NCBI GenBank assembly: GCA_965112155.1
Contig: OZ218103.1
Direction: 5' to 3' (one strand)
Source: Podarcis liolepis
Taxonomy: Eukaryota
Length of the DNA: 64,000 bases
Shown here one piece after another: positions 8,617 through 59,724 of this stretch. A program made the position numbers and the translations under genes. A model generated the notes under the pieces. That model was not told the origin of the DNA, did no database searches, and worked only from the letters and a program-made list of their open reading frames with translations. Within the stretch, counting starts at the first letter, position 1. Every line of letters begins with the position of its first letter.

Positions 8617-8836
8617 CAGTGGTACCTCGGGTTAAGAACTTAATTCGTTCTGGAGGTCCGTTCTTAACCTGAAACTGTTCTTAACCTGAGGTACCACTTT
8701 AACTAATGGGGCCTCCTGCTGTGCCGCCGCCGTGCAATTTCTGTTCTCATTCTGAAGCAAAGTTCTTAACCCGAGATACTAATTCTGGGTTAGCACAGTC
8801 TGTAACCTGAAGCGTCTGTAACCCAAGGTACCACTG
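8617..8836 (+). mobile_element. Tc1/mariner (Tigger/pogo-like) MITE, copy 1
   Basis: TIR CAGTGGTACCTCGGGTTA ... TAACCCAAGGTACCACTG; 5' TA target site (3' TSD mutated to TC); internal TTAACCTGA repeats. Confidence 0.92.
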
Positions 8837-11459
8837 TCTTGTAGATAGCCCCTTGCCCCCAAATACTCCATTGTGCTCTAAAAGTGCACATATTGTACAT
8901 TATGTACAACCACATGTTAGTTTTTGATAAGCTTCCTCTGTAAATACATCTTTAATCCGTGAAAATTGTGAGATTGTTCTGGTGAAATCAATGTATATAG
9001 AAATCATTGTCAATCTATTGCAAATCAAGCAGAGCTCCAATTCCCAATTGTTTAACATTAGCAGCAAAGTGACTCCCATCCCTCCCTGCATTATACTGTT
9101 GAAATGAAGAAAGCAGGAGTTTGCCAGGAATGGGTTTTTATGTGGAAGGACACTGAGCTCCATTTAGTTCTGGGCTTTAAAACAAATTATGGAGCTCAGA
9201 ATTCAGAAGTATTAAGGTCCAACTGGTGCATTTTAGGGTTAAAAAACAAAGTAGCTCCTGCAAGTAGATTCCATATGCCTAAAGCCTGCCCTCCTGTGAA
9301 CTGAGTCTATGCATATAACCAGAGACGTTTCTTCTTAGGATGTCCAGTGCAGTTATTTTATTACTGCAGAATTTTTCAGTTGGAGAATGAATTAAATAGG
9401 CTCAGTACTGGAAAGTTGTTTCTCCTCCTACAATTACAGAATGACTGAGCAAGGCCACAGAAATAGCAGACATGGACAAATTGACCAATACTGTATGTCA
9501 AAGAAATTGAATGCATATTCAGGTTGCTTTAATTGTAAATGGGCTCCATTTATTATCTGTTGGAATAATAATTATGGACATGAAAGATTGGAAAGAGATT
9601 GGGTTTTATTATATTCTGATATATTTTATTTAATAAGACCAGGGCGGGGGGTGGGGGTGGGATGCAGAAGTAGCTATGTGCAAGCCAAGCCACTCAGCTT
9701 TGATTGCTGAGAATTCTGAAGCCTGGGAAAAGGTAGAGGATGCTAGGGAATCATAGGCAAACAGGCAGGGAAAGTGGAGCCTCTGGGCACCTTTTTCTGC
9801 CTGTTGTTTATCTGTTCTTATCTTTTCCTTTAGTGGCTAATTGCTCTGCTCCTCCTCCTCACAGCTTCTAGATACAATTAGAAGACACAACAAAGAGAGA
9901 TATGATAAGCAGGACTAAATATGGAGTGCAGAAAGGTGGCCCACAACTGATTTGCTTTCCTGCGATTCCTTCCTGCTTTCTCTGCGTGTTATTTTTTTCC
10001 TTGTGAAATTTGCAACTAAAAAACTAACAATAATAAATAAGGAAATGGGATGCAGCTTCTGCTACTTGCAGCTTGCGGCTTCTTTCTTGTGGTTTCAGAG
10101 CAGGAAGAGAAGAAGGTTGGGCTTGTTGAAAGAGAACAAGTTTTGCACTTTCTTGAGTAGAATGAGTTTTGGTGCTCCTATCCCCACAAAACAAGAGGGC
10201 GCCTTCAAGGCACAACTGAGACACAACTTGTCAACATTTGTTGTTTTGTTTAGTAATTGTTCTTAGAGCACCAAAACGAAACACATACTTGCTTATGATG
10301 TTTCATTATGCTTCTGTGCTGTCAGGGTCAGAAATGATGTGATTTATTTAACAAGAAGCCTTGCCACTAAATGCAAGATCAGAAGTGCTATATTTAATTA
10401 AAAACTTTTATTTTTCAAACAAACAGTTATTATTCCTTCTTACCTTCTGAACTTTAAGACATCTGAGCTGAATAGGACCTGGATAAAGCAGGGAGAAACT
10501 TTCCCCTTTCAACAGATGCCTGTTATTACTTTATCTCAAACAAGGACTCTAACCCCCCCAGATGAACAATACAAGCAAGCAAAAAGTAAAATAAAAGTTA
10601 AATTGGTAAACTTGGGTTTGGTTTTTAAATTCAAGCAGCTATAAAAAGCCTTGAATTTGTTAAGAATTTGCTGTTTTGCTGTGGAAGTAATTACAAGTCA
10701 ATAGCATGTGTCATTGTAAAGTTAGCCACTATATTATCAGTTTGGGTTTTTTATTGGTTCAGATGTGACTAAGCAGGATTAGTACATGAGAACCTTATGA
10801 AAAATAGAAGTGATAAAAGCAATTTAACTGTCAGTATATTTGTGTTGTGGTTTTGCTATGTGAAACATAATTGCCTGGCAATGGAAAGGACACTGAGGAT
10901 GGATTCCCCCTCCCACCCCCACTTATTTCTGTGTCAGTAGCGGTGGAAGATTATTTCACTCTTGGAAGGGATAAATACAACAGATTAAAATTATATTTAA
11001 AATTATGCAATGAAAATTTGCAGCTGTGTTCTTCACTGGCACATGTGTGTGCAAAGGCAGAAGAAACTAAAGATAAAAAATATTATTGAAAGTTCCTTCC
11101 CACTTTTGTGGACATTATGGGCACTCATGGTAAAGTCTGTGGTTCAGAGCTCTTACTCTGAAACTTATTGTGGTTTCAGCCACTGAATCAGCAATTCAGC
11201 TGCATCAACTTCAGTCTTGCTGATTTCAGTGTGCATATCAGAATATAAGATTGCAGTTTTAGTGAGGAGAAGCCACTGACCCATATAAACTATGGACATT
11301 TTAGGGAGATGAGTAGATAGAAGTACTAAAAGACTAGCAGCTGAAATAAAGCATAAGAATTAGTGCCATGATTAGATATTCCCTTTAATGTCATACACAT
11401 TTTTCATCTTCCTTCCATTGTTTGTGATAACTCTTGTTTGCTGTGACTTTGGCTAGTGT

Positions 11460-17800: not shown

Positions 17801-18073
17801 ACTAGGTTGTTGTTGCAATAAATCCTTATTGACACAATCATAGATGGATAACAATGGTAAGTTATGGTTCAGGTTGAAAAAGCCAACCAAGTGGAGTTCA
17901 ACCTATCACTGTATTATGATAGACCTTTGATCTTTTAGTAAAGAGGTCATCAGTGTTGGAGTGGGGAAGAAATGCATTTCAGATCTTTGTAAAAACACTC
18001 ATTGAGACTATACTAAATTCAGGTGTTGTGTGTTGGGGTTGTAGCATTTTGGAGGTGCTTCTTAATGTATGTA

Positions 18074-18314
18074 CAGTGGTACCTCCGGTTATGAACTTAA
18101 TTAGTTCCGGAGGTCCGTTCGTAACAGAAACCGCTTGTAACATGTGGCATGCTTTTGCTAATGATGCCTCCCGTTGCTGCCGCGCTGCCAGTGTGTGACT
18201 TCCGCTCACATCCCAGGGTAAAGTTCGCAACTGGGAGCATCTACTTCCGGGTTAGCAGAGCTTGTAACCCAAAGCGTTTGCAAGGAGGATGGTATGTTAC
18301 ACAAGGTTCCACTG
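18074..18314 (+). mobile_element. Tc1/mariner (Tigger-like) MITE, related subfamily
   Basis: TA|CAGTGGTACCTCCGGTT ... AAGGTTCCACTG|TA, TA TSD on both sides; shares GAACTTAATT.GTTC.GGAGGTCCGTTC with copy 1. Confidence 0.9.
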
Positions 18315-19029
18315 TATGTGAAGGTGGCACTTCAGTTCTTTGTTGCATCTGGTCTGTTCTGATTCCACCACAATATGACAAAATGATAGCAGTTAAATTA
18401 AAGAATGATGTTTTTAGTGACCCATAAGTGAGCCTCTTTATTTATTCTGGGTGTTTTGGTTTCTATGGAACACTTGAACTGACAACCTTTTAATGGAAAA
18501 AAGTGGATATTTCTTCGGGTGATGGGTGGGAGGTCTTAATTTCCTGAAGCACCCCCTTCGTGGACCAACACAAAGCTGTGTTTGCAGGCGGTCATGGCTC
18601 ACTGCAAGGGATATCTAGCTCTGCGTTTGCCCCGGCTTCTCTGAGGGGGTGAACACAGTGTTGAGGGAGGTCTTGGTTTTAGAAGGTTGGAAGGTTTATT
18701 AGTGTTGACAGTGTGTGAACTTGACATCTTTTGTAATAATGAGGTTTTAAAATGTGAATTATTCATGCCTTGCTTTGAATACAGGCTTATTGTGTTAGTT
18801 GGAGCTGTGAAGAGAGGAAAGATATTAATTAAATAAACGTCACTGTTCTAGAAGATCATGTGGGAAATTTTTGTCATGCCTTCAGTATAATCAAGGGAAC
18901 TAGACACAATACATACTTACTGAAGTTAGTTGTAGTTAGATTCAAAACATATTGATAATTCTGTTCTAGTTTAATGCATATTATCTGTTAATAGTGATTA
19001 AATCTTGAAATCACGGGGGCTGTTTGGGT

Positions 19030-29584: not shown

Positions 29585-29782
29585 TAAGAACATAGTAAGC
29601 TGCTGTAGACTGAGTCAGACCATTGGTACATCTGTCTCAGTGCTGTGTGTGCTGAGTGGCAGTGGCTGCCCATAGTTTCAAACATGGAACTCTCCTAGCC
29701 CTACCTAGAGATTCCTGGGGTTGAACCTTGGCCCTTCTGCATGCAAAGCAGATGCTCTATGACTGAGCTGCACCCCATCCCC
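29585..29782 (-). mobile_element. tRNA-derived SINE with CR1-like tail (Squam3-like)
   Basis: Minus strand reads GGGGATGGGGTGCAGCTCAGTCATAGAGCATCTGCTTTGCATGCAGAAGGGCCAAGGTTCAACCCC (tRNA head with A/B boxes) ... CTATGTTCTTA tail. Confidence 0.85.
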
Positions 29783-30078: not shown

Positions 30079-30207
30079 TGCTAATTGATTTTTGCATTCA
30101 AGTCCTGTTTTATAATTCTGTGAAACAGTTGTGGATTTGAATCAGCTGGTATTTAACCATATTCATCCCAGAACTAAATGTACTTGGAGTGGCACATGAT
30201 CATTATA

Positions 30208-30433
30208 CAGTGGTACCTCGGGCTAAGAACTTAATTCATTCCGGAGGTCTGTTCTTAACCTGAAACTGTTCTTAACCTGAGGTACTACTTTAACTAATGG
30301 GGCCTCCCGCTGCTGCTGTGCCGCCGCCACACAATTTCTGTTCTCACCCTGAATCAAAGTTCTTAACCCGAGGTACAATTTCTGGGTTACCGGAGTCTGT
30401 AACCTGAAGCGTCTGTAACCCGAGGTACCACTG
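30208..30433 (+). mobile_element. Tc1/mariner (Tigger-like) MITE, copy 2
   Basis: TA|CAGTGGTACCTCGGG ... CCCGAGGTACCACTG|TA; very similar to 8617-8836. Confidence 0.93.
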
Positions 30434-34109: not shown

Positions 34110-34800
34110 GAAAGCACAGAACGAGTGACGATATCATAATGTCTAATATAATCAATGTAAATCTTGCTAAGTGTTGTGATTTGGTCACGTTTAAGTAACA
34201 GGCGTTAGATTTAGGGGGGGACGACCTATAAATAGCAATAGCAAAAACTGCAGGCTAGGCTTTACTTTGCAAAACAACAACAGCAATAAACTGTGTTCAA
34301 GTAAAAGTATTTAGCGGTATTCTTGCTCATTTTCTTTGGAGGCTGTCTGTTAAAATAGTAGTCATTGCCCAGAAACGCAGAAACCTCAGGCATACTGTAT
34401 TTCTCAGAAAGATTAGAAGAGGCTTGGTTTACCCAGTTAACTCTGGGCAACCATATACCAGAAGGCCTGGTGGCATTTGCCACAGCAATATCTCCACTGT
34501 GTGTGCATTTTCGGTTCATTAAAAAAAGATGTTAATTGTGGCCGGTAGTCGAGAATCTTTCTTTTAGTCAGTTATCAGCGGTTTCCTTTTGCATGGCTGG
34601 CTCGCTGATGGGGAGCTGTCCGTTTATTTAAAAAACAATGCCTCAGTTATCATATTGTTTAGTGTGGGGCGGGGAAGTGAAGCATTCAAATGCGAACAAA
34701 TCCAAAGCAGGAAAGCAACACATCAAAAACAGGGAGGGGGGTTCAGGGCAGATTTTACAACCTGAATAAATCAGTTTAATGAAGGAGTTTTGTTGGAGTA
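34110..34800. promoter_or_regulatory. Candidate enhancer/promoter-like block
   Basis: CpG retention; MEF2 consensus CTATAAATAG 34226-34235; inverted SOX pair AACAATG/ATTGTT 34634-34659; GC box plus ETS GGGGCGGGGAAGTG 34666-34679. Confidence 0.5.
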
Positions 34801-41359: not shown

Positions 41360-41619
41360 NNNNNNNNNNNNNNNNNNNNNNNNNNNNNNNNNNNNNNNNN
41401 NNNNNNNNNNNNNNNNNNNNNNNNNNNNNNNNNNNNNNNNNNNNNNNNNNNNNNNNNNNNNNNNNNNNNNNNNNNNNNNNNNNNNNNNNNNNNNNNNNNN
41501 NNNNNNNNNNNNNNNNNNNNNNNNNNNNNNNNNNNNNNNNNNNNNNNNNNNNNNNNNNNNNNNNNNNNNNNNNNNNNNNNNNNNNNNNNNNNNNNNNNNN
41601 NNNNNNNNNNNNNNNNNNN
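41360..41619. other. Assembly gap (260 N)
   Basis: Run of N. Confidence 1.
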
Positions 41620-43178: not shown

Positions 43179-45261
43179 TACAGTTTTGATCATTTCAGTA
43201 TGCTTATTCAACAGGAGGACAGTTTATAGTGTGCTTTTAAACTATATGGTTATTTGTTAAGTAAATTCTGCAATTCAGAAGCTGCAGTTTTGAACATGCT
43301 GACTAGAGACTATGGGGCTTATTTCTGAGTAGATGAGGACAGGATTGCACTGCACATGATACTACTGATAAAAAGAAAGGGCCCAGATTCTACTTGTATT
43401 AAATAAGTTATGATTTAAAATTGGGATGTGTATGTAATTTGATTAATAGATAATCTGCACGAGAGGATTAAACTTTTTCTCTCTCTGTGGTGTTTGAAAT
43501 TGTAAGAGGTGAGCATCTTTTTGATCTTGTTGGCCACCTATTAAATAGAGCTATTTCATTTTAAGCTGTCCCTCTGTACACATAACTTAGGTTACCTTTC
43601 CCAGTGTGTATTCCTGGTCTGTTTAAAATAGATTAGGGTTTTACATATATTTTGTTTTGATGTCTGGTACTGAGTATACAAGAGCTAATCATCTTGACCT
43701 TTCTGACAAACAGAGCAACAGAAGGATGCATCTCTCAGAGTTAATTCTGTCTTGTTCTCAGTGGGAACAGAACATTCCTCTGTGATCCTCTTTCACATGA
43801 TTCACTCAGGCCTCCTGGAAGCCACTCTTGATACTATTAGTGCTGGGATACTTAGGTCTAAAGTAGATCGACAGTAGTGACATCACAGACCATTTGTGGT
43901 TTAGAGACAGATTGGACCAGGCAAGTGGAGTTGTTAAGACTCATATTAAGGAAGCAGTAGAAAATGAGATTAAATAGCAGAGCATTTTTTTTGCATTTTT
44001 TACAGTTTTCATTTTCATCTACTTAAGCACAGTTTTAAGAAAGAAACAAGAGATTTCAATGAACTTAACAACCTGATTTAAATAACCTGATGATGAAATC
44101 CTTTGTTAGGCTATATTTGGTACCAGTTAAGAGATGACAACACATAAAACGGCAACCAGTATTTCAGCATATATAATTTTATTTAAACAATTCCAACAGC
44201 AATATGAGAAGCTATATTTATTTCCAAGAAAAAAAAATTGATATAGGAAAACTGGATGAAAGTTAAATTGCCTTAAATTACTTGAATCTCTTTCAGTCAG
44301 AAAACAAACAAACTTGGAAGTGTAACTATACTCTGTTTCTTTCTGATGCAACACAATAAATGTTGCTGTATTTTCAAACTGACAGTAAATAAATACCAAT
44401 AAATTGTTGCAAATCTGTCTATAGGATGTCACCAAGTTTTGTAGGAGTGATTCTTCAGTTTACACTTGTTTTTAACACTCGTGTCTTGTTCTACCTCTGG
44501 AATCCAAAAGTACAGTACAACAGTTTTTATTTGCTTGCCTTCTGTTTAGTTTCACAATTATTTATCAATGATGAAGCAGGTCCAGCCGTTCCTGATTGGC
44601 TTAAGGTCCAGTGGGTTATTAAGAGTGCTCTTCTTGCCCTTTGGTTCATCCTAGAGTACCTTTCCTCATCAACACTAGAGCAGTCATTATCTTGTCATTG
44701 CAATGAAGCAGGGTTTTGTTTTTTTTTAAAAAAGGCATTATGTACACATTGACCTGAAAGTGACCCTAGCTGGTGAGCAAGGGAGTGTAGTTATAGGGGA
44801 CGGCAAAAGGCAGAGGAGTATCACTCCTGATGATATCAGCTCGGAATCAATCACTTCTGAGATAATTTCTGTTATAACTCTGATAATTTCCCACTTGTCT
44901 TCTTGACCGAGGAAAGTTTTTAACAAACAATGCTGCCTCTAGACTAGCACCCTGTCCTTCCCACATCCTCCTCCCTGACTTTCCCACTGCTTATGATGAC
45001 TACCACACCTGTTTCTCTTGCCGCTGTTGTGCCCACCTTGCATTTTCTTTGGGTGCTACTGCCGTTTCAGATGATTTCTTTAGCCAGAGAATTGCTACAG
45101 AAGTGTTCATTTAATTCTTTATTTAATATATTTATAGAGTTCCTTGCAGCCATAATGGCTCCCAAGGCAGTGTGCTATTAAAAAAAACACCCAACAATTC
45201 GGCATCTAAAAATAAATCTAGGGAGCAAAAAAGAAAAAGTCAGAACAACCAATATGCAATA

Positions 45262-45503
45262 CAGTGGTACCTCGGGTTACATACGCTTCAGGTTACATAC
45301 GCTTCAGGTTACACACTCCGCTAACCCAGAAATAGTGCTTCAGGTTAAGAACTTTCCTTCAGGATAAGAACAGAAATCGTACTCCGGTGGCGCGGCAGCA
45401 GCAGGAGGCCCCATTAGCTAAAGTGGTGCTTCAGGTTAAGAACAGTTTCAGGTTAAGAACAGACCTCCGGAATGAATTAAGTACTTAACCCGAGGTACCA
45501 CTG
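45262..45503 (-). mobile_element. Tc1/mariner (Tigger-like) MITE, copy 3 (inverted relative to copies 1 and 2)
   Basis: TA|CAGTGGTACCTCGGGTTA ... TAACCCGAGGTACCACTG|TA; perfect TIRs; extra ACATACGCTTCAGGTT unit. Confidence 0.95.
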
Positions 45504-45583
45504 TACCAGAATAAGCAAAGCAGCAGCACCAATGAATTGCTTCATCTAAGCGCTGAAGGCATGGTGGGAAAGCTTTCCTTATA

Positions 45584-45811
45584 CAGTGGTACCTCAGGTT
45601 ACAGATGCTTCAGGTTACAGGCGCTTCAGGTTACAGACTCCACTAACCCAGAAATAGCACCTCGGGTTAAGAACTTTGCTTCAGGATGTGAACAGAAATT
45701 GCGCGGCAGCGGGAGGCCCCATTAGCTAAAGTGGCACCTCAGGTTAAGAACAGTTTCAGATTAAGAACGGACCTCCAGAACAAATTAAGTTCTTAACCCG
45801 AGGTACCACGG
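45584..45811 (-). mobile_element. Tc1/mariner (Tigger-like) MITE, copy 4
   Basis: TA|CAGTGGTACCTCAGGTTA ... TAACCCGAGGTACCACGG|TA. Confidence 0.93.
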
Positions 45812-45960
45812 TACTCTAAAAAGGGAGGAGAAGTGTTCTTGTCAAGCATCCAATCAGGAAGAGTTCCACAGAACAGGGCCACCACATAAAATGAACTGTT
45901 CCTTATTGAGGATAGCTGGGTATCTACAATTAATAGAACTTGGAGGTGGCTTCATTTACA
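45812..45960 (-). mobile_element. L2 3' fragment
   Basis: GGAAGAGTTCCACAGAACAGGGCCACCACATAAAATGAAC is the reverse complement of the L2 'F.VVA..LWNSLP' motif. Confidence 0.6.
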
Positions 45961-47557: not shown

Positions 47558-48099
47558 TAAGTGCACTTTGTTTCCTCTCAGCTTTACTCAGCACATGTAC
47601 TTAAAAGCTTAATTTTGGGACTGTTACCAAAAACATCTTCCTTATCTTCTGCTTTCAGGCAGAGGGTTTCTTCAGCCATTATGGTCTGCTACCTCTTCAC
47701 ATGGCTGATCGCAGTGCCGCGTGAAGCACCAGCGATTCCTAAACAAAAAACTGAGATGAGAACTGCCTCAGTTTTCCAGAGACCCTTTTAATCCTTTTAG
47801 TGCCTTTCTCAAATTCAGATTCATCAGGCAAGCAAAATAGAAGAGTCCAACAAGTCAAAGCAGTTTTGTGGGTAAACACCCAAAAGGTACTGCCTTATTT
47901 ATTTATTTATTTATACAAGCCTGTTGTGAGCTGGCAGAAGAGGAGAACGAATAGCCACATTTCTGTGCAGGGAGGAGGGGGACTTCCCTCCCTCAACACC
48001 ATGAATATTTTTATGCTGGAAGCACAGAAAGGGCAAAACATTCAAAGGCTCCTCTGCCAACCCACTCACTTCCTGCATGGAATCCCTGGTCACCTGTGG

Positions 48100-48620
48100 C
48101 TACTAGGTTGCTGCTTACATGCAAGGTTGAGTTGAATAATTGTGCAAAAATAGCTTCCAAGAAACTTGTTGTCATTATATGTATCGCTGGTATTGCTAGC
48201 CTCCTGTTAATTTTAGCCGCTGAATTATTCGAGGCAGAATTGAAGTGCACCTCCCCTCCAGTGAACAAAGGGTTAATTTCAAAAAGTGCACTGAAGGTGA
48301 GGAGGCAGGACAGATGTTGAAAGTGACTCACCCTACCTCCCAGAACTGACAAGACTGGGTCGTCATTAGTTAATAAACGTATTAACTGTGGCAAAGCCGT
48401 GTTAGATAAATCAGCCATTAATAAAAGGGGTGGGAGTCCCACCGTGGCAGCTGGCCAGGTACTTTATGATAAGCACTTGCAGGACTGGGCCAATCAGACT
48501 TGATTGTTTGCTGGCAGTGGCTTCGTTGGCCAGTGCTGCAGTAAACACTTTCCCTTGGAAGTTGGTTTTCTGTTGTGTCTGGCAGCCACACTGGGCTGCT
48601 TGAACTTTAGCCAGAGGCAA
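48100..48620. promoter_or_regulatory. Candidate conserved intronic enhancer
   Basis: TE-free, CpG-retaining; AACAAAG 48264, CAGATG 48311, TGACTCA 48324-48330, AGATAA ~48404, GGCCAATCAG ~48488, GTAAACA 48541, many TAAT cores. Confidence 0.5.
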
Positions 48621-49099
48621 ATATTTATACATCAGAGCATGCAGTGTTCAACTGGTCAGGCCTGCAAGAACAAGGGAGAGGACTGTGGGCTTTCTTAACC
48701 AAAGAGGATGTGTGTCCTTTTTAATTGCATTCGTGACACGGTGAAGTGGAACCACATTTGAGTCTGTTTCAGTGTTAACTTTATATTCTGTAGCATAAAC
48801 TTTAGAAATTTGTATAAACATTAGTCATATATGTATTTTTTAAAAAGGGACATCCTGATGTGAGCTCTGTTCCTTTAATTCCTGTTGGAAAGTTTACAGT
48901 TAATATTTTCCCTGGAACGCTGTCAAGCTTTTGACAGAGCCTGAGTGTATGCTGAACTGTGAAACTGAGAAGCAGAGCAAGTTGTGAGAAATCTGTTTCT
49001 ACTCAAATCTGTAAGGTTTATAAAAACTTCAGCAGAGAGGCAGAAAGAGGGGGAGAAATATCTGAGACTGGCTCTCGTTTTGCCTCTCATGGAGCGCAG

Positions 49100-49215
49100 T
49101 GAGTCCGCCATTTTAAGAATTCAGCAAAGGGCGAAGCTTTCAGACTCCTTACATGGCGGCTGTATTTACTTCAATTCCGGCCAATCGAACAGTCTGTGCC
49201 AAATCATGTGACATG
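49100..49215 (-). promoter_or_regulatory. Promoter-proximal motif cluster (YY1 x2, CArG-like, CCAAT, M-box)
   Basis: CCGCCATTTT 49105-49114, CCTTACATGG 49147-49156 overlapping ACATGGCGGC 49151-49160, GGCCAATCG 49179-49187, TCATGTGAC 49204-49212. Confidence 0.55.
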
Positions 49216-49231
49216 CCACGAATGCACTTAC

Positions 49232-49620
49232 AGTCATTTCCTTGTTTCTAAAAACTTTGTTACCTCTACAGATTACTTTACCTTGTTTTTGATGCCAAAT
49301 GTTCTTCGCCGAACGTGTCTAGCAGGCTGGCGTTTGTCCACAAAGTTATTTTAGTAGGTAAAAAGTCTCCGAGCACTTGAGCTGTGTGCATTCTTTATGT
49401 AAAATGGATTTCCCCTCCTGGCCTCAATCCAAGAGCACAGAACACTCGCTGGGCGAGAAGAGAGCTTCTCTGCAGAGGAACTGGTGGACTGACACACTCT
49501 AATTTTTTGGCTCTTGACCAGACAAGTGAGATAGATGCCAGAATTCAACAAAATAACACATTATTGTGTAATAGGAACAGTACTCAAAGTGAGCAAAAGC
49601 TCACAGGAACTGAACGCCAG
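49232..49620 (-). other. Candidate first exon of a minus-strand (antisense/nested) transcript
   Basis: Minus-strand TATAAAA 49647-49641, Inr-like TCAGTT 49613-49608, CpG-retaining body, donors AAG|GTAAAG (49281), GAG|GTAACA (49263), ACT|GTAAGT (49231). Confidence 0.5.
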
Positions 49621-49800
49621 TGCTTCTTTCTTTCTTTCTTTTTTATAACAGAAGCTTGAACTGGCACTTTTAAAATGTTATTTCAGAGGAACAAGGGATG
49701 AAATATAACTGTGATGTACAGGATGAATAAAATCATACAGTTTCTAACATAAAGCAGGAGGGAAGGGGAGGAGGGGGAGGAGGAAGGAAGAGTGGAGCTG
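49605..49800 (-). promoter_or_regulatory. Candidate core promoter (TATA + Inr + upstream C/T-rich tract)
   Basis: TATAAAA on the minus strand; GA-rich tract 49756-49792 (CCTCCCCCTCC on minus, KLF/SP/MAZ-like). Confidence 0.5.
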
Positions 49801-50336
49801 AAATTAGTTTGTGAGGGTTTTGCTCTGTGCTCGTCCATGTTAACCCTTTCCATTCACTTTCAGAGTTCTAAATTTGTACTCAAGCATTTATTTATATTCC
49901 ACATTTAATTCCACTTTAGTGCTCTAAATTAAGTTTGTATTATCTTAGAACCAGAGGGCAATATGGAGCCACAGAGGGGTTGTCATGGTGCAGCCTCAGT
50001 GGGTGTTGTTGCCAACCTTCCCTTTCCACATTTTTTCCTTTCTACAACTTCAAACAACATACAAACATCAATCTCAAAAATCTTTCTGTTCTAGAACAGT
50101 AAGGTAAAGGGTTTCTTTTATCATTAGTAATGTTGCAGTTCTGTCATGCTCTTCTGGAAGAATCTAGTCATATGGGCAGATGCCAAGGTGGATGGAAAAG
50201 GGAATCCACCATACCTTTCAGTCTGGGCAGGGGGCTGTTGAATAAGAGATCGAACATTATATTATATGTGCATCAAGTGGCATAAGGAGAGGGTGGGTTG
50301 AAGCATGCTTTAGCCTGAAACTAACTCCCATTTTAA

Positions 50337-54330: not shown

Positions 54331-57300
54331 ATCTGATTCCATCTTGGAGCTATTTCTAAATTACATCCTCATTTGGTGATCATAATCCACACAAACAGAA
54401 AAACATTTCCCTAGTTATGTTAATATATATTCATTGTGAATGAGATATGAATGAACCTGATTTAAGGGATTTCTAAAGTATGGAACGATAATTTAAAATA
54501 AGTGATAATAGAAAATCCTTTTGTGGATTGTTGTCCATGTGGCTTTATAGTGACACATTTAGGTGATGATTTTATGTGTTACATCAGGGCCTCATAGTAA
54601 TACAAAAAGGGATAATGAAAATGTTTATGATATGTTCCAGGGATATGGGTTCTGTTTCATATTGTGTTACATTAACAGAACAAATAATTGAATGTGTGGG
54701 TTGGCGAGATTGAAATGTTTATTTACTATCTAGTTGTCCTGGCAATAGTGTTCGCCATCTTATTTAAATTAATGTCTAATAGAGATGCACTGTAGATTTT
54801 ATGTAGGCACACATATAACTGATGGTTCATTTAAGGAGTGCATGTACTAAATATGTTTTTGCTATCCAGCCAAGCTAACGGCTGTGTAACTGTTGAGCAT
54901 AAAACTGTAATATCTATATTTCCCAGCTTGCAGTAATGTTTCTGAAGTCTGGGATAACTGATGCTAATCTCCAGTTTGTTTTGTGGCTTTCCAAAAATTA
55001 ACTTGAAACAAAATAAAATGTGATGTAAATCCATTCATTTTAAAATGTGTAATCGAAAGCAATAGGCAACATCTAGTCTATATAGCAAGCTACTCAATGG
55101 AACTTAAAAAGCCAAACAAGATCCCTGGTATGAAAGAATATGAACATTCAAATACATCATCTGTTAATTGCATTCTTGGTCTCAGAATTTCCCACTTTGG
55201 TGCTTATTGTAACTTCAGCTTATCCTCTTGAACTGACTGTAGAGTATTTGAAAACATTTTAAATAGGTCTGCAAGCTTTAATCAATGCGATTAATCAAGT
55301 GAAGCTTTAATAGCAGATTAAAATTTGGCGTCCGATTAATTGGTAGGATTGACAATGAGTAAAGACTCTGGAATTTAGATCCCTTAAAGGACCTGCCACT
55401 GTGTAGGGCACATAAATTTGCTGTCTCCCTTTTCTCTGCACCAGAACAGATGAAACAGAAATGTAAATGGTTGCTCTGTTCCAATTTGTCTCCAAAATTG
55501 GCAAAAACATTTAAAGGAGAGGATGCTAGTATACTTTTGGAGGATTTACTTTAGACTAAGTTCGTAAGATAAAAATCTTGCCCAATAGTAGACAACAGTA
55601 TTTCACCCACTGGTACGTGCAAAGTCTGATGTCTGGGTGGCCAAAAAGAGAGAGAAAATATTTTGCTATTTTAAGGTGAAACTGTCTCTTCTGTACCTTT
55701 TATCTTCTGAGTCTTTTATCTTCTAAGTCTTCTAAGTCAATTTGATTTTTCCTACCCTGCTCTTACCCTGGAATGTTCACAGTGCCCAACACTTCCTGCC
55801 TGATATTTCCTAGAACAAGTTAAGATGGGAGTATCAGGGACAAATATTCTGACCGCTGTAGATTCATAGGGACGAAAGTCATAATCGGTTCCCAGTTTCT
55901 CAAAATCCCAAGTCCAATGTGAATCAGAATACACTTGCAGTTAATGTGCAAATTGGAGCATTTTGTTTCAACTCAGTAGATCTGTCATAAGGTCATCTTA
56001 CAGTTATTTAATTGTTCCCAAATTAAATGGCAGCTGCAGTAATATGCATATGTCTCTGCTGAGAGGTGGTTTCCCTCAGAAGCAGGGAAACAGTTGAATG
56101 CTAAGATGCAAATGCTTTGTTTTTGATGTGAACCTTTAGAAAGTACTTTCACCAATCACCCTTGCTGTGAGCCCACATTTTATTTATTTCCTGCCAGTTC
56201 TTCAACCAAACAACCCAGCGCTGCTAACAAGGGAAAGTTAAAATAACAAGTGAGTCAAAATAGGACATTAGAAAGGACTTTGCTCTTCTTCTTTCTCTTT
56301 GTGGCTGGTTGATAACTGAGTGTAAGACAGGACAGACTGAGTAGCAATCAGGTAGGCCATTTGAATGATTCTTGTTTCCTTGCCATCTCCTGCTTTCCAA
56401 ATTGTTGCTTTTTGTACGATATAACTCATTGGGTATATATCTGTGAAGCTTGAAAGATAAATGGTTACTTCAGCTTAACAGCTTTTTGCTTTTGCTCTGA
56501 ATGGTTCCTTTTGTTTTGCATAGACCTTCACCCTTAAGGGCAAGGAGGCAGCTTGCTTTAATGATGGAAATAACACATCCAAGGGATTTCCTCCCATTCC
56601 CCTTTTAACAGAACCCTCCCCAGCCAATCTGACCTAGCACCTAGCAATGTTCTTGGCTTTGGCCAGCAACAGCTTGGGAACCCAGGTCTGCTTCTGAACC
56701 CAGATGGCAGTGCGTTGCCATATGTCAAGAACATATGCTGTCCTGATTCTTAAAAAAAAAAAAATAACGTCCATTCTTCCATCCACACAAATGGATCTTA
56801 ACCCATTGTGTAGCAAGAAATCTCTTCACTGCCAATCCTATTCATTCTCTACAGAGATGCTTCTGCTGGAGCAATATGATTGAGAGTGTAATTATAGGCG
56901 TTGCACCAAAGTTTTTAGCAAGCTTTCCATTTCAAAATCCTTGTCAGGCTTCTATTGGCTTTGATGTTGCTGAGAAAAGACGTTTGTCATCATTAACAAA
57001 TTTGACAATATGGTAGCAATTCTGAGTTCTTGATCAGGAGAGGAATACAGACTTGTATTTCCGAGCACAAACTATTCACTTGTACAACCAAGTGAACTGT
57101 TTCTGTTTTATGCGAGTGAGCCTTTCGTAGAGGCATGGCTGTTAAGGATTGGGTTTGTTTTATCCTCTTCTTTATTAATTGCTTCAGCCACAGCAATGGC
57201 ACAGACCAAGACAAACAGAACAGTAAAATAAAGACTGCCTGTCTATCTTTTCTATTTTTCCTGCTTACCTAGGACACTAAGTTAGTGCTTTTGAGCATCA

Positions 57301-57725
57301 AAACATTTTGATGCCTTTGATATGCACATACGGGATAAAGAATTGATGTTGGGGACTTTTTAATTTTTTGTGCTAAGGGACCTACTGATAGGCCAAGGAA
57401 GTACATAACTGTCCTCAAAGATAATTCCAGATCACCCTTTTCTCTCAAAATAAAGGATAAGTTTTTAAAAGAAGAAGAAGAAAGAAACATTCTTTTTCCA
57501 GGAGCTGTCCTTCCCCCCTCCCTCTTTGATAGTCATGAATTGAATGCTGAGATGTTGAAATCTATCACTGAGATCCAAAGGAACATTCAGCTAGCTACTA
57601 GCTCTGTGCTCCCTAAAAGGCTTTGAGTCTGTGTTTCTTGAATGATAGACTACCATGACACTAGGCAAGTCTGAAATTGAAGGACCTTCTGAAAGTAGTT
57701 TGGGCATCCAAACTTGGGGTGCATC

Positions 57726-57861
57726 CAGTGCTATTTTTCTACAAAAAAAGAGGTGCTGGAACTCACAACGACACCTCCTTCGTTCTCTTAGAATGGCAAT
57801 GGTGACCACCTGAGAGTGCCGGAACTGAGTTCCTGTGAGTTCTCCTTGAAAAAAAGCCCTG
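57726..57861. mobile_element. 136-bp hAT-type MITE
   Basis: Perfect 8-bp TSD GGTGCATC (57718-57725 / 57862-57869); TIRs CAGTGCTATTTTT / AAAAAAAGCCCTG; shares AGAGGTGCTGG.ACTCA with 33827. Confidence 0.9.
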
Positions 57862-59724
57862 GGTGCATCCAATGCTGCTGTTCTGCTTGCACAATGAAAC
57901 TTTTCCCCATCTGTATTTCCACACACTCAATATCTGCTCCAGAGCTGAGGGACCTTCTGGAGCAGATTTTGGGAGTTTGCAGGGGGAGGAGGAGAAGCTT
58001 TGTTGCAAAAGTGGAACATCACTTGTGCACCACTAGGTATGGCTGAAGACGCTATTTAGTTTATAGCCATTTACTTCAGTAGTTCACTAAAATGGGTCAT
58101 TATAAATTTTATTTTTTAAAAAAAAAAATATTCAACCACTTTGCCACCTCAGCATTCAAACTGTCCTAAGAGAAAAGCCATAACAGAATGAAAACAGCAT
58201 CAGATGCACAGTAATAAGTATATTTTCAAATTATTGTGTGGCAGAATTCCCATACTACCAAAGATTGTCTAGGCAAAAATATATTATAATTCACACTAGG
58301 AACTACATATTCATTTATTTTCTTCTCTCTTTGTTATTAATAGCTATACTACATATAAACTAGTAGTGCATTGGACATCATGGGTCATCGGTGGCAAGGT
58401 TTTTAATATTTCAGGACAGATCAATACCAATGCAAATAAAATAATGTTGTGTCAGGTCTGATTTCTCAGGGAATTCAATGAGGCCATGTCCGTTCTTGAC
58501 AGCCAAACTCTGGCTCTGCAATTCAATACAAATAAAAGGCACTGGTATTATCACTGCTTTTTAATGGATCCACTTCAGAGAAAACTGGAAGTATTCCCCA
58601 AAGAATACCAGTCTATGAGAATCAGATTTACAGACCTGCCGTTTTAACATGGACATAAAGAAACTTGATTACTGAAAAACAGAATTAATCTCAATGTTTC
58701 TTTTGTTGTGTGTGTATTTGTGTAGAGTGGATAATTTATTTTGCAATTCACTGTTAGTTGTTTTAAGCCAAGTATATTACCCCCCACACACACCCCAAGC
58801 TATGTGCTAAAGAAAAAATACTGCCTGTACCAAAGTCAGAGAGCATAGCCATTGATTTCAGTGGAGCCAGAACTGCAGCCACAGAAACCCAATGGAACTC
58901 TCTAAAAGTGCAGGTTAAGAGAAGGGTTATTCTACATTGAATTATGTATATAAATCTTTTATATAACTGTGCTAAGCAAAGAAACATACAGACCATTTTC
59001 TTACTAGGTCTGGTCTAAGGGTATAACACTTACACACTGCTTTGAAAGCAATGAAAGCAGGGTTGTTGTTTTTTAAGAACTCCTAGTTCTTTCTGCATTC
59101 CATGTTTACTCGGTAAAGTTCATGCAACCATCCTGTTCCTAAATCAAAAGGAGAGACTTCTATCTCCAATTCTTGCAACAGATTGTTACAGGTAAATTGT
59201 CTTGTTTATTTATTTTTCCTTTTTTTATTAACTTACCCACTAAATTTGTAAATCACATTTCAAGGCAGTTTACCATCAAAACAACAAAAGTATTCAAATA
59301 GAATATGCAACTGTAGCCACAAGATAAATTAGAACTAAAAGGCATCAACAATGAACAATTTCTGGGGAAGAGACTGAGAGGTTTCTGGCCCTCATAGGCC
59401 AATCTAACCTCCAAATTGAAAACCAAAAGTTGTGGTGTAAATCCACCATGACAGGCAGAGCTGGGAGCTCCAATTCTACTTTTTGTTGAGTTTGTTTCAT
59501 TGGCTACTGGCACATCACAAACATTGCTATTACTGCCATTGTTCCCATGCTTCCTATTAATCAGTAATCCGAAATCCTGAGCTTGCACTACAAAACTTGC
59601 ACTGCATTTACAAGAAAAGATCATGGGTTTAGATTCCATCTGTGTAAGACTTACCTTACTAGCCAGTATCTTTCCATAGGCAGAAAACTGTTCCTTCAAA
59701 TTAAAGGGCCAATATTGTTTCTAC

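Follow-up and report, generated by a model that had tools for sequence, protein, structure and literature searches.

A conserved, CpG-retaining element in a lizard genome: a probable minus-strand promoter and non-coding first exon

Nested genes are common, prefer the long introns of their hosts, and show a slight bias toward the opposite orientation, according to the sections of PMC11694760 considered here. In mouse, for example, Filip1l overlaps Cmss1 on the opposite strand (PMC8138604, in the part consulted). Promoter syntax is described in two preprints, both cited here from excerpts. The Puffin preprint (bioRxiv 2023.06.27.546584) describes TATA as conserved around -30, with U1 sites beginning at +50, and reports that YY1 promotes initiation strand specifically, just upstream of its motif. 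The ProCapNet preprint (bioRxiv 2024.05.28.596138) gives a TATA-Inr distance of ~30, describes NFY and YY1 as promoter enriched and TATA as enhancer enriched, and finds enhancers depleted of strong YY1 sites.

We analyzed a 64,000-nt stretch of Podarcis liolepis contig OZ218103.1 (assembly GCA_965112155.1; hereafter, the window), in which a first-pass annotation had proposed, at 49100-49800, the minus-strand promoter and first exon of a gene nested within a + strand host. As in TATA/Inr Pol II promoters, insofar as the excerpts above describe them, a candidate TATA box lies roughly 30 nt above a putative Inr and is followed by a candidate U1 site, and the predicted 5' exon is conserved and carries upstream ATGs; unlike in that class, a YY1/NF-Y/E-box cluster lies 400 to 500 nt downstream, in the predicted intron. 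The window also resembles the opposite-strand host/nested pairs of PMC11694760 (same sections) in its lack of a recognizable coding exon, and differs from them in that neither a host exon nor a nested coding exon was identified here, the host being suggested by base skew. The reading that we favor, with a probability of roughly 0.6, is a minus-strand Pol II start at 49615-49611 with a predicted non-coding first exon extending to 49282. The features are as follows (P numbers denote homologs described below).

49756..49792, minus: C/T tract, outside all homolog alignments; no role assigned
49641..49647, minus: TATA box candidate; P0017 and P0019 codons compatible with an intact TATA, P0016 short by one base (inferred from peptides)
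49608..49615, minus: initiator and predicted start; a conservation step lies here, and its AG lacks acceptor quality
49282..49615, minus: predicted non-coding first exon, 330 to 334 nt, with upstream ATGs at 49561 and 49391
49276..49284, minus: donor 1, AAG/GTAAAG; score 7.6, rank 53 of 3161; Q-G-K kept in P0001, P0003, P0014, and P0004
49258..49266, minus: donor 2 candidate; score 6.6; GT fits the homolog codons, +3 to +6 altered
49226..49234, minus: donor 3 candidate; score 6.1; not conserved, P0001 and its cluster having a different codon at the GT
49204..49212, no strand assigned: E-box; H-V in P0001, P0003, and P0014 compatible with the CACGTG form
49179..49187, plus: CCAAT box, one of 12 matches to the consensus within the window; all 4 homologs that align here retain D-W or I-G
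49147..49160, minus: YY1-type site 1, overlapping a donor-like CAT/GTAAGG; kept in P0003, P0014, and P0004, in differing frames
49105..49115, minus: YY1 consensus site 2; L-K-W-R kept in P0003, P0014, and P0004
48903..49029, no strand assigned: second conserved non-coding block; 34 of 43 positions identical in P0004, the one sequence covering it
48661..48679, minus: very strong acceptor candidate; score 14.9, rank 2 of 4333; 620 nt below donor 1

The motifs reported by the first-pass annotation are present on the minus strand: the C/T tract at 49792-49756 (37 of 37 pyrimidines, one of four such tracts on this strand of the window), TATAAAA at 49647-49641, the Inr-like TCAGTT at 49613-49608, and donors at 49281, 49263, and 49231. 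TATAAAA and TCAGTT occur 30 and 74 times in the window, strict TATA+Inr pairs (26 to 38 nt apart) were observed twice (0.67 expected), and five windows contained three donors within 52 nt (2.65 expected). Since single motifs, pairs, and triplets are thus near chance level, the motif order alone is weak, and the locus rises above chance because it is conserved. The 260 N, together with a single 104-base stretch away from the locus, are left out of the counts of motif pairs, donor triplets, CpGs, tracts, splice sites, and skew. Counted from the first T of TATA, G49615 is at +32 and A49611 at +36, the latter being a longer spacing than usual; in the P0016 cluster the TATA-Inr spacer is 2 nt shorter, which brings G49615 to about +30. 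The AG of the Inr makes a poor acceptor (score, -3.8), with pyrimidines at 7 of the 20 upstream bases. The CpG-retaining stretch was also recovered (15 CpGs in 49075-49474; GC, 0.45; observed/expected, 0.75; the third-highest 400-nt CpG peak of the window), with a corrected extent: the CpGs span 49076-49454, of which 7 lie within the proposed exon and 8 downstream of donor 1, with none in 49455-49614.

A 37-residue minus-strand ORF (49391-49281) matched 4 proteins among 1.84 billion representatives, 3 of them at 89% identity over the first 28 residues; the fourth, P0002, was discarded as a repetitive chance match. The + strand ORF 49381-49656 yielded P0015 and P0016 (two of two candidates), and no homolog was found for the minus-strand ORF 49111-48926. 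The homologous ORFs, which come from Logan and ENA and of which a single member can draw on as many as 67 contigs, bear no protein name; an Atlas search with the 37-residue ORF returned unnamed clusters only, and P0001, P0003, and P0004 have no Pfam family. A pattern search of JGI metagenomes gave 73 matches, none of them confirmed; a DNA pattern match, L001, appears to be unrelated bacterial DNA. P0001, P0003, P0014, and P0004 align collinearly over 49391-48903, as do P0015 to P0020 over 49206-49730, with frame switches at 49307, 49174, and 49535 and with stops within the window frames. This combination argues that the ORFs are spurious readings of related DNA and that the element is conserved and non-coding. 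Judging from these alignments, other species retain 48903-49730 but do not keep one reading frame through it; the absence of conservation that the first-pass annotation had listed as counting against its proposal is thus not what is seen. Nucleotide conservation was deduced from the codons of the homolog peptides, all of which read unspliced across the donors, so that it is conservation at the DNA level only. The homologs fall into five sequence groups. P0015 is close (91%); in the other groups, 5 to 11 of 16 codons are identical just past donor 1, and within 49099-49030 the values run from 5 of 25 to 10 of 24. A deeper split is implied.

The two ends of the predicted exon coincide with changes in conservation. 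Identity of P0016 is 9/17 above TATA, 4/12 from TATA to the Inr, 43/48 from the Inr to 49470, and then 19/26 and 18/26. The step at the Inr (43/48 below versus 4/12 above; Fisher P = 1.7e-4) comes from a frame outside the search query, and the low identity above it lies partly within a GAAA run in the spacer. At the other end, P0001, P0003, P0014, and P0004 are identical to the window at 32 of 37 codons up to donor 1, a value inflated over the first 27 codons, where these sequences were retrieved with the exon peptide and are identical to each other and hence not independent. Past donor 1, identities out of 16 are 8, 10, 11, and 5 for P0001, P0003, P0014, and P0004 (Fisher P for the drop, 0.012, 0.068, 0.15, and 1.4e-4, respectively), the drop being significant in two of the four. 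Residues across donor 1 are retained through +6 and vary from +7. A conserved block that opens at the initiator and closes at a donor has the shape of a first exon, and the promoter and first exon of the original proposal gain support from a rise and a fall at ends that had been named beforehand. Conservation also extends past the predicted exon, to the YY1 pair and to 49029-48903.

Donor 1 is likely the main donor. Donor 3 is present in the sequence as described and is lost in one lineage, the P0001 cluster; a fourth donor-like site that the first-pass annotation had missed, CAT/GTAAGG at 49152 on the minus strand, scores 8.0 (rank 39). As that annotation had held, no coding exon is recognizable: at E 0.001, none of 150 window ORFs had a Pfam match; the window has 244 ORFs of at least 60 aa, and the set scanned comprised 144 of the longest 150 among them plus 6 shorter ones. 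A separate Pfam scan of seven ORFs, which included the other six of those longest 150, likewise gave no match at the cutoff, and a splice-site scan of the window with approximate matrices gave no convincing exon. An assembly gap of 260 N at 41360-41619 could conceal a small exon. The very long first intron that had been proposed is unnecessary, because the second-best minus-strand acceptor of the window, at 48661, lies only 620 nt downstream of donor 1; what is absent is a coding exon. It is possible that this acceptor starts a non-coding exon 2. Farther left, 47900-48500 has no obvious repeat and contains strong minus-strand donor-like sites (48331, 48336, 48118, 48093, and 48069), acceptor-like sites (48290, 48015, and 47962), and homeodomain-type words; it could represent non-coding exons or an enhancer.

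The downstream motifs are also as reported: CCGCCAT at 49159 (minus) and 49105 (plus), CCAAT at 49181-49185, and TCATGTG at 49204-49210. The two CCGCCAT words are the only copies in the window, stand 55 nt apart, and face outwards. The E-box is of the M-box/USF type, and the CCAAT box fits the NF-Y consensus. The E-box, the CCAAT box, and both YY1 sites are codon compatible in the homologs; the P0001 alignment terminates at YY1-type site 1. The cluster plausibly resembles a second, TATA-less promoter starting near 49120-49150. A + strand first exon (TATA at 49019, donor at 49099) was rejected, as its donor is not kept in P0003, P0014, or P0004.

In the favored reading, minus-strand transcription would begin at 49615-49611 after TBP binding to the TATA box at 49647, and the exon would be defined by U1 at the donor 49282/49281. 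Lying 70 to 180 nt inside the intron, the E-box, CCAAT box, and two YY1 sites would serve either as a promoter-proximal element or as a second TATA-less start, and the remainder of the gene, coding or not, would lie leftwards, possibly beyond more non-coding exons.

A coding first exon beginning at ATG 49391 would draw on a frame with no stop in the 110 nt before donor 1, which it reaches in phase 2, and on the retention of this ATG and of 25 of the first 27 codons in P0001, P0003, P0014, and P0004. However, a 1-nt shift at 49307 in those same sequences leads to phase 1 at the donor, so that the phase differs between lineages; the ATG is absent from the P0016 cluster; the Pfam result given above for P0001, P0003, and P0004 offers no family; and, a weak point, no protein of 283 to 2000 aa containing the peptide was found among 7491 candidates. 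This reading is therefore already largely refuted and is very improbable, and ATG 49391 is best read as a putative upstream ATG. An internal non-coding exon, either a + strand host exon at 49272-49588 or part of a minus-strand transcript entering at 49743, 49469, or 49448, would be supplied with fitting sites: the + acceptor at 49272 and + donor at 49589 score 8.4 and 7.2 (P0016 retains the codons over this donor), the three minus acceptors score 7.4, 9.0, and 9.8, and the C/T tract could serve as a polypyrimidine tract. We nevertheless find it improbable, as identity is complete for nine codons beyond the + donor and ends at the Inr, an indel in P0004 spans the + acceptor, no conservation step occurs at 49469 or 49448, and acceptors scoring at least 8 number ~100 per strand.

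It is decidedly unlikely that the main start is instead a TATA-less promoter at the downstream cluster, near 49120-49150, on the minus or both strands. Such a start would account neither for the more strongly conserved block 49613-49282 nor for its terminal donor; the 450 nt below 49100 contain no good minus donor, and the + donor at 49099 is not retained in the homologs named above. In its favor are the outward-pointing CCGCCAT pair, the codon compatibility of all four motifs, the location of 8 of the 15 CpGs at the cluster, and the strand-specific, YY1-driven initiation just upstream of the motif that is described in the Puffin excerpt (bioRxiv 2023.06.27.546584). The block may also be viewed as a conserved enhancer-type element that yields at most an unstable RNA and in which TATA, Inr, and donors are incidental. 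Its patchy conservation on both sides of donor 1, its near-chance motif order, and the enrichment of TATA motifs at enhancers (bioRxiv 2024.05.28.596138, in the excerpt) are in line with this view, which we consider unlikely given that both conservation edges coincide with positions named beforehand and that the same excerpt associates NFY and YY1 with promoters and finds strong YY1 sites depleted at enhancers.

Returning to the promoter and first-exon reading, the locus is probably an ordinary vertebrate promoter with a 5' non-coding exon of a gene that we leave unnamed. If so, it would fix a start site and a 5' exon that annotation based on coding exons would miss and would mark a compact conserved promoter with testable motifs. 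The element would be of a common kind, perhaps already annotated in model species, and would gain in importance only if its RNA were an unannotated conserved antisense transcript. We see no great likelihood in a further proposal, a deeply conserved tandem promoter (TATA/Inr plus an intronic TATA-less start 470 nt downstream, with a possibly bidirectional YY1 pair) that would drive, antisense to a large host gene, an unannotated non-coding RNA whose exon 2 would begin at 48661.

On the + strand of the window, split into 32 bins, G exceeds C in 21 bins and T exceeds A in 27, with no change in skew where the site lies (P = 0.29 and P = 0.90). AATAAA occurs 46 times on the + strand versus 80 on the minus strand to the left of the site and 23 versus 23 to its right; no host exon was found among the 150 ORFs scanned with Pfam. 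In mammals, the rates of A->G and of C->T are higher on coding strands, and replication likewise yields a G+T skew or enrichment (PMC2839347, in the portion cited). From this bias and the base skew, a + strand host may be inferred; given the promoter and exon reading, we lean slightly toward a minus-strand unit lying antisense inside a + strand gene, in one of its long introns, with base skew as the single basis. FILIP1L in CMSS1 had been tentatively suggested as the best-fitting pair because of muscle-type motifs and a long intron. The locus is like that pair in its proposed opposite-strand overlap and unlike it in that 48640-50000 contains no match to the MEF2 or CArG consensus, which leaves the muscle-motif argument without support in that interval. 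INSYN2B/DOCK2 and similar pairs match the layout equally well. That the nested gene is FILIP1L is, in our judgment, doubtful. In supplementary file 4 of PMC8138604, no oligo is labeled as a first-exon assay, and the literature retrieved, in the portions available, held no usable description of FILIP1L exon 1 or INSYN2.

The window as a whole is vertebrate DNA of ~40% GC, CpG depleted and rich in repeats, which we take to resemble lizard Tc1-type MITEs, one SINE, and CR1 pieces. An Rfam search of the entire window returned nothing at 49100-49800; a borderline tRNA-like match at 29706-29777 (29.1 bits; cutoff, 29) is likely a SINE head. The stretch 57000-58050 combines a 95-aa + strand ORF, a 24-nt repeat spaced at 144 nt, and a strong minus donor at 57268; it had no support from Pfam, PDB, or Atlas and is possibly a decayed element, and ORF 57339-57626 was not supported as an exon (best E value, 0.68 in PDB and 0.86 in Atlas). 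Several of the CpG peaks are explained by one MITE family with inverted repeats (copies at 8617-8837, 18072-18315, 30207-30433, and 45259-45812). The CpG-rich segment 20696-21130 (GC, 0.59) sits within an apparent old LINE fragment. A further CpG-retaining segment at 34296-34695 (10 CpGs; observed/expected, 0.58) has no obvious repeat and is a possible regulatory element.
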